Positions 41,048 to 45,259 of a stretch of 64,000 nucleotides of DNA are shown one piece after another. The stretch is from Candidatus Woesearchaeota archaeon. GTDB taxonomy: Archaea > Nanobdellota > Nanobdellia > Woesearchaeales > 0-14-0-80-44-23. The stretch lies in contig JAVZCZ010000001.1 in NCBI GenBank assembly GCA_038874135.1, forward strand, positions 512,001 through 576,000, given 5' to 3'. Positions within the stretch are counted from its first letter, which is position 1, and each line of letters begins with the position of its first letter. The notes beneath the pieces were generated by a model. The model was not told the DNA's origin, searched no databases, and worked only from the letters and a program-made list of their open reading frames with translations. A program made the translations under genes and the position numbers.

Positions 41048-41536
41048 TTAAAAGTAGTCGTCATAATAATTAGGCCTGACTGCTCCTCCGCACATCTCTG
41101 CAACTTTTTGTATGAATGCGTCTGCCCTGTCATAGTATTCCTTAATCCTATCAATGTCTATGTTTAATGTTTCGCGAGGGCTAAACTGGACTATCATTGT
41201 AACATGCCTTCTGTACTCTTCAACCTTCTTGTATTCCGAGCGGAGTATTTTTCTCAGGAGCAGAAAGAATTCTATCTCGTTAAGAATGTCCGGTCTATCC
41301 TTGTAAAGTGCTTGGAGCTCCTTGCACTTTATGCCCACATTTTTTGAATATGACTGAATCTTCTTCTGATTCTTCGCTTCTTCAAGCAGCGCTGTTATTG
41401 CCTTTTCATACGCTGTTGCCAGGCGCTCCACGATGGATCTTATAACATCCACCGTCCTGGTATATTTCAGACTCACATAGATTAGGTGATCAGCCCTTTT
41501 CATCTCTTCAAATGCTTCTCCGAGAGCTTCATTCAT
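41048..41536 (-). CDS. Conserved hypothetical helical protein (HEPN-like)
   Basis: RADHLIYVSLKYTRTVDV, EEYRRHVT; overlaps the upstream ORF. Confidence 0.7.
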   Translation of the reverse strand: MNEALGEAFEEMKRADHLIYVSLKYTRTVDVIRSIVERLATAYEKAITALLEEAKNQKKIQSYSKNVGIKCKELQALYKDRPDILNEIEFFLLLRKILRSEYKKVEEYRRHVTMIVQFSPRETLNIDIDRIKEYYDRADAFIQKVAEMCGGAVRPNYYDDYF

Positions 41537-42002
41537 TTTGGTTCGTGATGGCAGAAAGTTCTTCTATAAATATTTTTGTTTTAAGCACATATCCCTTCAG
41601 CTGTTCATAACTGAGCATCCTGGTTTTAAACTTGTCATCGCAGATTATAAACTTTCCATCCCTTACAAACTCTACAGGACTTTTTTTGTGCTCTTCTATT
41701 ATATTAAACATTTCTAAAGCAACTGTAGCGTAAGAAAAGCTTAGGCCGTTTCTTTTTAACGATTCTTTAAATGCTGGAAGGCGATCTAAAAAAGAATCAT
41801 TTTTAGGAGGGTGCATCTTGAATTTTTTCAGCTCTTTTCTCAGCAGAGAGTTCAGTGCAGTGTACATTGCTAAGAAGGTGTTCTCCAGAGCGGGGAGGAA
41901 GAGCCGAGCGTTCTTGTTTTGAGGATAGATGAAGTTCAAGATGTTTTCTGCAGCAGCAAGATAGCTCCTGGCAGTACCCCTCAACTCGCCGGCCTCAGCC
42001 AT
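41529..42002 (-). CDS. Conserved hypothetical helical protein (HEPN-like)
   Basis: HKKSPVEFVRDGKFIIC; similar size and layout to the neighbour. Confidence 0.7.
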   Translation of the reverse strand: MAEAGELRGTARSYLAAAENILNFIYPQNKNARLFLPALENTFLAMYTALNSLLRKELKKFKMHPPKNDSFLDRLPAFKESLKRNGLSFSYATVALEMFNIIEEHKKSPVEFVRDGKFIICDDKFKTRMLSYEQLKGYVLKTKIFIEELSAITNQNE

Positions 42003-42053: not shown

Positions 42054-42184
42054 TGCGGGGAGTAGGATTTGAACCCACGTAGGCACTAAGCCAGCAGATG
42101 GCTCACGCGGAATAGCTCATCGGCAGCTGCCTCGCCACTCAAGCAACTTGAGTCTGCCCCGTTTGGCCACTCCGGCATCCCCGC
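42054..42184 (-). tRNA. tRNA-Leu(CAA) with 47-nt intron at 37/38 (42100-42146)
   Basis: GCGGGGA/TCCCCGC acceptor stem; GCAGA/TCTGC anticodon stem; long variable arm; TTCAAAT; BHB with central helix CTCA/TGAG. Confidence 0.95.
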
Positions 42185-42251
42185 ACGGCATTATGGCTGA
42201 GCTGCTGCTTTAAAAAGTTTTCTCAGGTTTCTAACCTTTTTTAAAGAAATA

Positions 42252-42259
42252 TTTATAAA
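42252..42259 (+). promoter_or_regulatory. TATA box of the uORF-polyamine operon
   Basis: AAAGAAA(BRE)-TA-TTTATAAA; predicted TSS about 42282. Confidence 0.6.
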
Positions 42260-42282
42260 ATGCAGGAGGCTCCTCTCTTCCG

Positions 42283-42360
42283 ATGAAAGCCCTGCTCAAG
42301 ATTGACGGATTTAAGAGTTCTGGAGCATTGTTTGACACAGTCAGCAGTTTTGGAAGATAG
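42283..42360 (+). CDS. Putative leaderless leader peptide MKALLKIDGFKSSGALFDTVSSFGR
   Basis: ATG at the predicted TSS; 25 codons; ends 58 nt before the dhs ATG. Confidence 0.5.
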   Translation: MKALLKIDGFKSSGALFDTVSSFGR

Positions 42361-42418
42361 GGGCAATTCTTCTTACAATAGATTTATTTTGTTTTAAAAA
42401 GTTTGGGAGGTTGGTCTT

Positions 42419-43363
42419 ATGGAGTATGTTAGGGATTTCAGATGGGAAAGGGGTTTAAGTGTTAAAAGGTTTACTTCACACCTTTCCAAGGTTGGTTTTC
42501 AGAGTGTAAATCTTGGAAGGGCTTGCGAGATTGTTGCTAAGATGAAGAGGGAGGGCGCTAAGATATATTTAACATTCACCTCTAACATGGTAACCTCAGG
42601 TCTTAGAGGCTTCTTTGCTCAGCTGATTGAACTCGGAATGGTTGACATTGTAGTAACCACTGTAGGGGGCTTAGAAGAGGACATAATGCGCGCGCATAAC
42701 GAAAGATTTGCAATTGGAAGCTTCAGAGCTGATGATGTTGCACTTCACGAGAGGGGAATGAACAGGGTGGGTAACATTCTGATAAGGGATGAGAGCTATG
42801 CTAATTTTGAGGATACAATAACAGGAATGTTAAAGAAGATTTATGAAAAGAGGAAGAGAATGACAAGTGCAGAATTTTTCAGAGAGGTCGGCTTGCTAAT
42901 TCAGGATAAAAACTCAATACTTCACCAGGCGGCTGTGAAAAATGTTCCAATATTTTGTCCCGCGATAACTGACGGGGCTCTCGGCTTTCACCTGTTTATG
43001 TTTCAGGAGAAGCATCCTGACTTTGTTATTGACTGCGTTAGGGATTTTAAGGACATAGTGACATTTACAAGTCAGGACGATAAGAAGGGCATAATCTGCC
43101 TTGGCGGGGGGGTCTCAAAGCATTATGCTATACTTTCAACTCTCATAAGCGGGGGGATGGATTATGCGGTTTACATGACTACTGCTACACCTTACAGCGG
43201 GAGCATGAGCGGGGCTTCAACCGACGAAGCAAAGAGTTGGGGGAAGATAAAGGACGATGCCGATGCCGTTACAGTGATAGGAGATGTCAGCATAACATTT
43301 CCTCTCATGATGTGTAGCGTTTTAGAAAGGCTCTCTGAAGAGGGGCTGATCAGGGGTGCTTAG
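42419..43363 (+). CDS. Deoxyhypusine synthase-family protein
   Basis: TSNMVTSGLR, GGLEED, NRVGN, PAITDG, GGGVSKH, GSMSGA..EAKSWGK (active-site Lys present). Confidence 0.95.
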   Translation: MEYVRDFRWERGLSVKRFTSHLSKVGFQSVNLGRACEIVAKMKREGAKIYLTFTSNMVTSGLRGFFAQLIELGMVDIVVTTVGGLEEDIMRAHNERFAIGSFRADDVALHERGMNRVGNILIRDESYANFEDTITGMLKKIYEKRKRMTSAEFFREVGLLIQDKNSILHQAAVKNVPIFCPAITDGALGFHLFMFQEKHPDFVIDCVRDFKDIVTFTSQDDKKGIICLGGGVSKHYAILSTLISGGMDYAVYMTTATPYSGSMSGASTDEAKSWGKIKDDADAVTVIGDVSITFPLMMCSVLERLSEEGLIRGA

Positions 43364-43365
43364 CG

Positions 43366-44391
43366 ATGGCGCGCTTTCTACTTAGCAGGAGGAAGGTCTT
43401 AGAACAATACTCAATTGTTAAAGGGTGTACAGATTATGTTTCATACAGCTTCAAAACCAACCCTGAGGTCGGACAAGTTCTTGAGAGTTCCACTGATTGT
43501 TTTTTCAGCATCTCTGCTCGTGCACATCTTGAAAGGATAGCTGACAAGGGCAGGGTAATATTCTTTGCTCAGGGCTGGAGTGAGAGTGAAATCTCTGAAT
43601 TATTAGATGCAGGTGTAAAGCGATTTACGGTTGACAACATTCAAGATCTGGAAACATTGAAGAGATTTATGAAGGGAAAGAATGTTAAAGTTTGGCTATT
43701 CCTCAGGATGAAGCTCAAAGAAAACACAATACATACGGGAAAGTATTTTGTTTTCGGAATGGGTGCAGAGGAAATAAAAAGTGCAATTAGAGATTTAGCA
43801 GATGCCTGCTGGATTGAAAGGTTGGGACTCCACTTTCACAGGAAAACGCAAAACACTAGTGAGTGGAGTTTAAAGGAGGAGATTGTTGAGTCCTTAGGAG
43901 AAGAAGTTCTCGGCAGAATCTCAATAGTTAACATGGGCGGAGGCCTGCCTTCAATTTACAAAAATTCCAGACCTGAGATTGAAAGCATTATGAAGAGGAT
44001 TTCTGAGTTTGCTAAATGGCTCAGAAGCAGGGGCATTCAGCTCATCATAGAACCCGGCAGGTTTATAGCTGCGCCCGCTGTAAAACTGGAAGCTGAAGTT
44101 AAAAGTGTATATGAGGGAAACATAATAGTGGACTGCTCAGTGTATAACTGCGCTATGGATACATTCATAATGAACACTCGGCTACTTGTAGAGGGGGAAC
44201 TTGAAGAGGGACTGGGAAGAAGGTATCTGATAAAGGGATGCACTCCTGATTCCATAGACATTTTTAGGTATAATGTTTGGCTGAGAGAAGTCAAACCGGG
44301 TGACAAGATAGTTTTCATCAATGCAGGTGCGTACAACTTCTACTCCGATTTTGATGGTCTTGAGAAGATAAAAACAGAGGTGGTGGATTAG
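43366..44391 (+). CDS. PLP-dependent Orn/Lys/Arg/DAP decarboxylase (alanine-racemase fold)
   Basis: YSFKTNP, HFH, NMGGG, IEPGR, NAGAY. Confidence 0.88.
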   Translation: MARFLLSRRKVLEQYSIVKGCTDYVSYSFKTNPEVGQVLESSTDCFFSISARAHLERIADKGRVIFFAQGWSESEISELLDAGVKRFTVDNIQDLETLKRFMKGKNVKVWLFLRMKLKENTIHTGKYFVFGMGAEEIKSAIRDLADACWIERLGLHFHRKTQNTSEWSLKEEIVESLGEEVLGRISIVNMGGGLPSIYKNSRPEIESIMKRISEFAKWLRSRGIQLIIEPGRFIAAPAVKLEAEVKSVYEGNIIVDCSVYNCAMDTFIMNTRLLVEGELEEGLGRRYLIKGCTPDSIDIFRYNVWLREVKPGDKIVFINAGAYNFYSDFDGLEKIKTEVVD

Positions 44392-44392
44392 G

Positions 44393-45259
44393 ATGAAATT
44401 CATGAACCTGCCTGAAGAATATTCTGGTCCAAATTCCAGATTTTTAATAGTTCCAATACCCTATGAGGGAAGGGTAAGCTGGATGTCCGGAGCATCAAGG
44501 GCACCTGCTAATATAATAAGGGCCTCTGCAAATCTGGAGTATTATGACGAAGAGTTTGAAGTAGAACCATTCCTGAAGGGAATTGCTACTTTAAAGAGTA
44601 TAACGCCCGGCAGGGTTTCTGAGGAAGCTGCTGTAAGAAGTATTGAAAGGAAAGTTGCCCAACTTAAAATAGAAGGTTCATTTCCAGTATTTCTTGGAGG
44701 GGATCACTCTGTTACAATAGGCGTTGTAAAAGGTCTTGAAAAGAAGTTTTTTGATTTTGGTTTTATAAGTATTGATGCACATTCTGACCTTAGAGAATCC
44801 TGGAACAAGTCGCGGTTTAATCACGCCTGCACTTCTAGAAGGGTTTTAGAAAATCATCCTGTGCTGATTGTGGGGCTACGCTCGCAGGATTCTGAAGAGG
44901 CGGAGATTATAAGAGAAGGGAGAGCTTTAGCTATAAAAAGGTATGAATATTCACCTCAGTTTCTAAAGAGTGCCCTAGCTAAATTACCTCAGAGCGTGTT
45001 TCTTTCAATAGATGTTGACGCTTTTGATCCTTCGCTGGTAAGATATACTGGAACCCCTGAACCCGGAGGATTCTTCTGGAATGAGCTTATAGAAATTCTA
45101 AAGCTAATATTTGAACATAAAAAGGTAATCGCTGCAGACGTAGTAGAATTTGCTCCTGGGAAAGATGAAAAAATTACCAATGCTGAATCATTTACAATTG
45201 CAAAACTCATTTACAAGATTTTTGCCTTGAAAATGCTAAGTGAAAAATGGAAAGCTTAA
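44393..45259 (+). CDS. speB: Agmatinase (ureohydrolase)
   Basis: GGDHS, DAHSD, HAC, SIDVDAFDP, TGTPEPGG, VVE. Confidence 0.92.
   Translation: MKFMNLPEEYSGPNSRFLIVPIPYEGRVSWMSGASRAPANIIRASANLEYYDEEFEVEPFLKGIATLKSITPGRVSEEAAVRSIERKVAQLKIEGSFPVFLGGDHSVTIGVVKGLEKKFFDFGFISIDAHSDLRESWNKSRFNHACTSRRVLENHPVLIVGLRSQDSEEAEIIREGRALAIKRYEYSPQFLKSALAKLPQSVFLSIDVDAFDPSLVRYTGTPEPGGFFWNELIEILKLIFEHKKVIAADVVEFAPGKDEKITNAESFTIAKLIYKIFALKMLSEKWKA

Follow-up and report, generated by a model that had tools for sequence, protein, structure and literature searches.

Among the closest described systems are the SpeFL and TnaC leaders, with which the leader reported here, a short upstream ORF (uORF) before the deoxyhypusine synthase gene dhs, shares a conserved C-terminus, a tolerance of any stop codon and a position ahead of a polyamine gene (bioRxiv 10.1101/604074). 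At SpeFL and TnaC a stall at termination masks an unstructured factor site beside the stop, and here a UUCU word together with a U-rich spacer is the candidate for such a site, in a genome that has an FttA/aCPSF1 gene scoring above cut-off. Archaea are without Rho, and the factor here would be FttA/aCPSF1. However the HIRRxxH sensor motif and the TnaC motif are found in 0/99 dhs leaders, and in contrast to the 34 residues of SpeFL the dhs leaders have 7-25, are leaderless, are without a conserved pause hairpin and are linked to dhs rather than to a decarboxylase. The uORFs of HOL1 (MLLLPS-stop), AZIN1 and AdoMetDC (MAGDIS) are similarly short, with conserved last residues and stop ahead of polyamine genes, and their termination depends on eIF5A and polyamines (PMC10855120). 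Yet PS-stop, di-proline and D[IV]S-stop each occur in 0/99 dhs leaders. The dhs leaders differ further in having no scanning ribosomes to block and a dhs with its own Shine-Dalgarno (SD) sequence; their effect has to fall on transcription or on the fate of the mRNA, the polarity would be opposite, and the target is the IF5A-modifying enzyme itself.

Mycobacterial polycysteine uORF attenuators likewise use a leaderless short first cistron (bioRxiv 10.1101/834739), whereas the dhs leaders have no single-amino-acid run and carry a positional motif, not a codon content. The control-codon run and the conserved alternative hairpins of a classical hairpin amino-acid attenuator are both absent from them. 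Ribo-seq in Haloferax and Methanosarcina establishes that archaeal uORFs are translated and that some are conserved, but as far as the available portions of these reports go they are catalogued without a mechanism and none is tied to dhs (PMC7261190, PMC11456600). A literature search, which most subscription journals lay outside, found no dhs leader peptide, no mechanistically defined archaeal arrest peptide or attenuator, and no report of an IF5A-modifying enzyme under leader-peptide feedback. Judged from sequence, the leader and its RNA word before dhs in many tiny symbiotic archaea look like an undescribed ribosome-based switch, one that would work like SpeFL, TnaC, HOL1 and MAGDIS while belonging to none of them and carrying none of their motifs.

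The window, the stretch of 64,000 nucleotides that was analysed, is part of a genome assembled as a single contig of 910 kb that is 99% complete, and the features of the locus are collected in Table 1.

Table 1. Features of the dhs leader and operon, in window coordinates.
Feature	Position	Strand	Remarks
BRE-like purine-rich stretch and TATA box TTTATAAA (42252-42259)	42243-42259	+	31 nt before the uORF ATG
Leader-peptide uORF	42283-42360	+	Leaderless, 25 codons; absent from the gene-finder calls
C-terminal motif	42331-42360	+	Stop-anchored; Ser(-5)/Arg(-1) type here
U-rich untranslated spacer	42361-42405	+	Includes the U-tract 42383-42395; candidate (inferred) FttA/aCPSF1 loading and cleavage zone
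UUCU, two overlapping copies	42367-42373	+	7-13 nt past the stop; 3' edge of a terminating ribosome
Shine-Dalgarno GGAGG of dhs	42406-42410	+	SD-like word in 86/99 homologues
dhs, deoxyhypusine synthase family	42419-43363	+	PRK01221/TIGR00321, E 1e-97/1e-88, slightly below cut-offs
Decarboxylase, divergent fold-III PLP (Orn/Arg/DAP family)	43366-44391	+	PF02784 above cut-off
Agmatinase	44393-45259	+	TIGR01230 above cut-off

The dhs product is the single DHS-family match in a search of the whole genome, and named relatives with a DHS of 60-66% identity are labelled Woesearchaeota, Nanoarchaeota and Aenigmatarchaeota, which places the genome among the DPANN archaea. The decarboxylase that follows has no solved relatives at E 1e-15; it is compact, and the YSFKTN context of its PLP-lysine is unusual. 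Elsewhere the genome encodes an aIF5A with a GKHG loop and an AdoMetDC-family protein, and in this 99% complete assembly neither a spermidine synthase nor BpsA was found above cut-off, and the local donor may therefore be something other than spermidine. This gene set makes the operon compatible with an agmatine route to deoxyhypusine as proposed for Haloferax (PMC5178350), with the SpeY-type route to homospermidine suggested for Woesearchaeota clusters of this kind (PMC10407285), or with both. The aIF5A gene itself (G000:C1:638780-639251, outside the window) carries a TATA box some 30 nt 5' of an in-frame GTG that lies 16 codons before an SD-led ATG, and this GTG could possibly mark a leaderless N-terminal extension or a 5' leader.

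That the uORF is served by a BRE-TATA promoter and starts leaderless at 42283 was part of the original prediction and is supported here. Across the genome, perfect TATA boxes are most frequent at 30 and 31 nt upstream of gene starts, where 69 and 67 were counted over a background of around 10. With 31 nt between TATA and ATG the uORF is most naturally read as leaderless, the predicted start of the RNA being the ATG or 1 nt upstream of it. The same spacing of 30-31 nt recurs in 90/99 homologous uORFs. The elements named in that prediction are all in place: the ORF at 42283-42360, GGAAGA at 42352, TCTTCT at 42368, GCCCT at 42289, AGGGGC at 42359, the U-tract at 42383-42395, the GGAGG at 42406 and the dhs ATG at 42419. 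A downstream start for dhs, driven by the word at 42392, had been named there as the competing possibility; that word stands 27 nt upstream of the dhs ATG and misses the 30-31 nt peak, its RNA would begin some 3-4 nt inside dhs, and so this candidate promoter is rejected. No Pfam match was found for the uORF peptide, no Rfam covariance model matched 42252-42418 even at E 10, and the genome holds no leader repeats or second copies; the full FD-anchored motif pattern matches it once, at the present uORF.

Upstream of the promoter and on the other strand lies a tRNA-Leu(CAA) gene (42054-42184, -), which Rfam matched and ARAGORN missed. It is interrupted at the canonical 37/38 position by a GC-rich intron of 47 nt, which gives a weak C/D-box sRNA match (sR10, E 1.5), and a TATA of its own, near 42210-42217, points away from the uORF promoter. 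Beyond it (41048-42002, -) two helical ORFs overlap, one of 157 and the other of 162 residues, and neither has an NCBIfam or Pfam match.

The uORF clearly belongs to a conserved family and is not a chance ORF. Among 149 dhs loci drawn from the genome's order and from Aenigmatarchaeota, a motif-free rule (a perfect TATA 29-32 nt 5' of an ATG that opens a 7-30-codon ORF ending before dhs) picks out 92, against 7.4 (maximum 14) in dinucleotide shuffles. Motif-class uORFs are present at 102 of the 149 against 0.2 in shuffles, although the genomes are related and the motif classes were drawn after the data had been inspected, which makes the motif-free count the cleaner test. The motif uORFs occur in 52/81 tested families of the genome's order, at 9/30 loci of a second order of the same class and also in Aenigmatarchaeota; 30/123 close dhs loci are without a detected leader, and no core-family leader was found in 30 dhs loci of a third small-genome archaeal phylum.

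The uORF is under purifying selection at the level of the peptide. Across four genomes of the same family all 25 codons are kept without gaps, and synonymous differences exceed non-synonymous ones (pS 0.50-0.70 vs pN 0.12-0.27; for dhs itself pS 0.75 and pN 0.12), a bias that is gone in the shifted frames +1 and +2 (pS 0.24/0.09 vs pN 0.28/0.31). Among 59 core peptides Val is written with four codons, Gly with four, Ser with both TCN and AGY and Arg with both AGR and CGN, and across all classes the three stop codons are all used (65/26/8). The conserved peptide that the original prediction had proposed to look for in relatives is thus there, as a uORF with a conserved C-terminus in about 100 related loci and with synonymous bias in the four genomes compared, and the refuting case named in that prediction, relatives lacking a conserved uORF, is decisively contradicted.

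What is conserved is above all a tail kept at a constant distance from the stop, (F)D[ST]V[RS]xxG[SR]-stop, in which the positions that count are V(-6), R/S(-5), G(-2), S/R/A(-1) and the stop itself, and the leader may vary from 7 to 25 residues while this tail stays anchored. Taking all [VI]xxxGx-stop frames before dhs whatever their start, the types at -5/-1 are 36 Arg/Ser, 9 Arg/Ala and 16 Ser/Arg, with three frames unrelated to the core tail; Arg therefore stands at -5 (45) or at -1 (16) of core-type tails, and both Arg/Arg and Ser/Ser number 0. The two Arg types are interleaved on the DHS tree, with at least 8 changes on a quick tree of weak support. No Pro is found near the stop in the core family. 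A shorter leader class ends V/I-K/R-x-x-S-stop, and Aenigmatarchaeota with the same operon have leaders ending Thr-Pro-stop, TP/NP-stop being found in 13 Aenigmatarchaeota-type loci. As a sequence feature the stop-anchored motif fits the ribosome-stalling sensor that had been envisaged.

The leader keeps company with dhs. Run over 351 genomes, a degenerate DNA version of the tail motif gave 9 matches against 1 for the reversed control, and 9/9 precede dhs or an AdoMetDC-family/DHS fusion; a stricter pattern in metagenomes gave 17 contigs, of which the 14 with an ATG are all before dhs and the 3 without a start are chance. The leader precedes dhs genes whose products share about 30%, 40% and 60% identity with that of the window and is retained with or without the decarboxylase, and at three loci (L036, L159, L175) the leader-led dhs is followed by a convergent gene. 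Since the leader stands before divergent DHS clades even where there is no decarboxylase, the regulated gene is dhs, and its tracking of dhs rather than of the whole polyamine operon favours aIF5A or product status over Arg as the signal. Natural variants of the arrangement are informative here. At L113 the uORF start overlaps the stop of rpS8e (ATGA), at L100 and L029 the uORF lies within a few nucleotides of the preceding gene, and in the single case of L073 it is rpS8e, standing immediately before dhs, that ends in the motif tail, and at all four UUCU follows downstream. These promoterless, coupled and fused cases indicate that the key is a ribosome finishing the tail beside UUCU, rather than a free peptide or a promoter of the leader's own. 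Taken together it is very probable that the uORF acts as a functional cis element.

The second constant element is an RNA word. UUCU is present at +1 to +18 past the stop in 88/99 homologues, against 24.8 in shuffles and against 52/320 (16%) at ordinary gene ends (15% in a second set). It starts at +1 to +9 in 80/93 and fades beyond +12, its distance from the stop varying from 1 to 17 nt, and UAG often comes next after it (73 vs 33) without preference of frame. A role for UUCU as a general terminator word of the lineage was considered and rejected, the word occurring at 36/192 convergent ends of this genome where 30.5 were expected. The spacer that carries it has more U than A in 86/99 loci as against 60/142 ordinary tandem gaps, a skew of the RNA strand only, and is 23-177 nt long with a median of 55. 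Its phase is random (32/37/30) and in only 5/99 is it open in frame into dhs, and so read-through or frameshift fusion to dhs is likewise rejected. Archaeal termination-reinitiation coupling has a range shorter than spacers of >30 nt (PMC12548453), and spacers exceed 30 nt in 93/99; they are thus too long for SD occlusion or reinitiation, which leaves control of the fate of the RNA.

The model that best accommodates these features, given about an even chance of being right, is a cis-acting arrest peptide through which the end of translation is coupled to transcription termination or to mRNA cleavage. The ribosome would load at the 5' end and run to the uORF stop. With ample deoxyhypusinated aIF5A and the required polyamine, release would be fast and the UUCU and U-rich RNA would be exposed, to be bound and cut by FttA/aCPSF1, keeping dhs, decarboxylase and agmatinase low. 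When modified aIF5A or polyamine is scarce, release at the motif would be slow, the parked ribosome would cover UUCU, cleavage and termination by FttA/aCPSF1 would be blocked and the operon would be read through, so that the outcome would be negative feedback on the aIF5A-modification/homospermidine pathway. The geometry would be that of TnaC and SpeFL with FttA in place of Rho, and the input would be of the HOL1 type.

Several described properties lend themselves to this scheme. The archaeal footprint is 27 nt, with 12 nt before the P site (PMC7261190), and by our own arithmetic a ribosome with the stop in its A site covers about 9 nt beyond that stop, the stretch in which most UUCU words fall. 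Nascent RNA rich in U is bound and cleaved by FttA/aCPSF1, which terminates transcription and which a coupled ribosome is thought to exclude (PMC11616081, PMC13675443). From the SpeFL/TnaC geometry a stall would turn the operon on, and given that the pathway activates aIF5A the coherent signal would be a shortage of modified aIF5A or of polyamine. Release at some yeast uORF stops requires eIF5A (PMC10855120), and the TP-stop and YPI-stop dhs leaders of Aenigmatarchaeota recall the eIF5A-dependent termination at PS-stop described there. Several points weigh against the model. UUCU is not a general terminator word of this genome and the recorded FttA preference is for U-tracts and not for UUCU, and so its reader of UUCU is a guess; a leader is lacking at 30/123 close dhs loci as far as detected; a dependence on aIF5A of the Gly-Ser/Arg-stop is assumed, the core tail being Pro-free; and the known polyamine-responsive uORFs stall at high polyamine, which is the opposite polarity.

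An unlikely alternative is induction by substrate, in which Arg, ornithine, agmatine or a scavenged polyamine would join with the nascent peptide in stalling release and so switch the operon on, with UUCU shielded in like manner. SpeFL does this for a polyamine decarboxylase (bioRxiv 10.1101/604074), a ligand pocket could be shaped by the one conserved Arg together with the F-D residues, and cells dependent on a host could switch genes on as substrate arrives. However the leader persists at dhs copies lacking a downstream decarboxylase, peptides of 7-9 residues offer scant space for a sensor domain, and the SpeFL sensor motif is missing from 99/99 peptides. It seems doubtful too that the stall is an off state, with high polyamine inhibiting aIF5A-dependent release (the HOL1/MAGDIS logic) and the stalled ribosome directing cleavage at UUCU or a no-go-type decay. 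This is the polarity of all the characterised eukaryotic polyamine uORFs (PMC10855120), and end-product repression would be sensible in an operon that could make homospermidine (SpeY-type clusters, PMC10407285). Yet a ribosome-bound nuclease needs a fixed and exposed site, whereas UUCU wanders over 1-17 nt and is mostly inside the footprint, and the SD, >30 nt off in 93/99 spacers, is out of reach of a ribosome parked at the stop.

It is improbable that the ribosome works through RNA structure, by melting a hairpin that hides the SD or acts as an attenuator, or through a termination-reinitiation hand-over to dhs. UUCU is able to pair with purine words and the source genome does have a weak 6-bp hairpin. 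Of the attenuator originally predicted, the two pairings GGAAGA/TCTTCT and GCCCT/AGGGGC are indeed possible, but the locus folds no better than its shuffles (z 0.24 and 0.29 on the two strands) and neither pairing is kept in relatives. No conserved hairpin or fold was found in the homologous leaders (mean local fold z 0.03), pairing of UUCU with the SD region exceeds p 0.5 in 5/88, and modelling a ribosome at the stop hardly raises SD accessibility (0.41 to 0.47). A requirement for AGA:UCU pairing was rejected, since UUCU persists at 34 loci that have no complement upstream and also where Arg is written CGN (11/12). The structural form of this explanation is largely refuted by the absent covariation, and against the hand-over stand the long spacers and the rarity of in-frame read-through (5/99).

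Very improbable is a peptide acting in trans, for example on DHS or aIF5A, with UUCU as an independent processing site. All 25 residues are conserved within the family, and amino-acid conservation by itself does not separate cis from trans, but leaders go down to 7-9 residues, the conserved positions keep their distance to the stop, the tail of rpS8e can carry the motif (L073, one case) and the leader is always directly before dhs. As for a chance ORF in an AT-rich leader, the source genome does have 112 short ORFs behind TATA-like words, and the reading is refuted by the synonymous bias and by counts of 92 vs 7.4 (maximum 14) without the motif and 102 vs 0.2 with it.

Returning to the arrest-peptide model, a more specific form of it is a feedback loop in which deoxyhypusinated aIF5A at the leader stop would gate FttA/aCPSF1 termination of the very gene that modifies aIF5A, as a factor-dependent attenuator that arose more than once; this is held tentatively, at somewhat below an even chance. 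Its repeated origin is argued from the several unrelated leader families that precede dhs in two DPANN phyla. If so, genomes of about 1 Mb that are poor in regulators nevertheless keep a putative ribosome-based control of the aIF5A-modification pathway. The family provides about 110 natural variants of a motif in leaders of 7-25 residues, with a compensatory swap built in and a fixed RNA word, and makes two things testable: a role of aIF5A in promoting termination like that of eIF5A, and a gating of FttA by the ribosome like that of Rho.

Further short-ORF families also stand before dhs. At L020, L095, L119 and L124, scattered on the DHS tree, separate aromatic-rich leaders of 16-17 residues ending R-(V/I)-F/L-stop occupy the same site before dhs. 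In Aenigmatarchaeota there are dhs leaders of 22-23 residues ending ADSLxExYPI-stop, with no UUCU past the stop (L191, L192, L195), leaders of 15 residues ending RG-stop (L193, L204) and short leaders ending TQP-stop (L194, L196), which suggests that leader control at dhs arose repeatedly and independently. The AdoMetDC-family/DHS fusion of L171, 444 residues long, has the leader upstream. In one family (L021, L084, L087) the usual place of the uORF is taken by a tRNA-Arg(UCU) gene ending 3-13 nt before the dhs ATG, and its anticodon loop reads UUCUA, the word found past uORF stops elsewhere, which may be coincidence.
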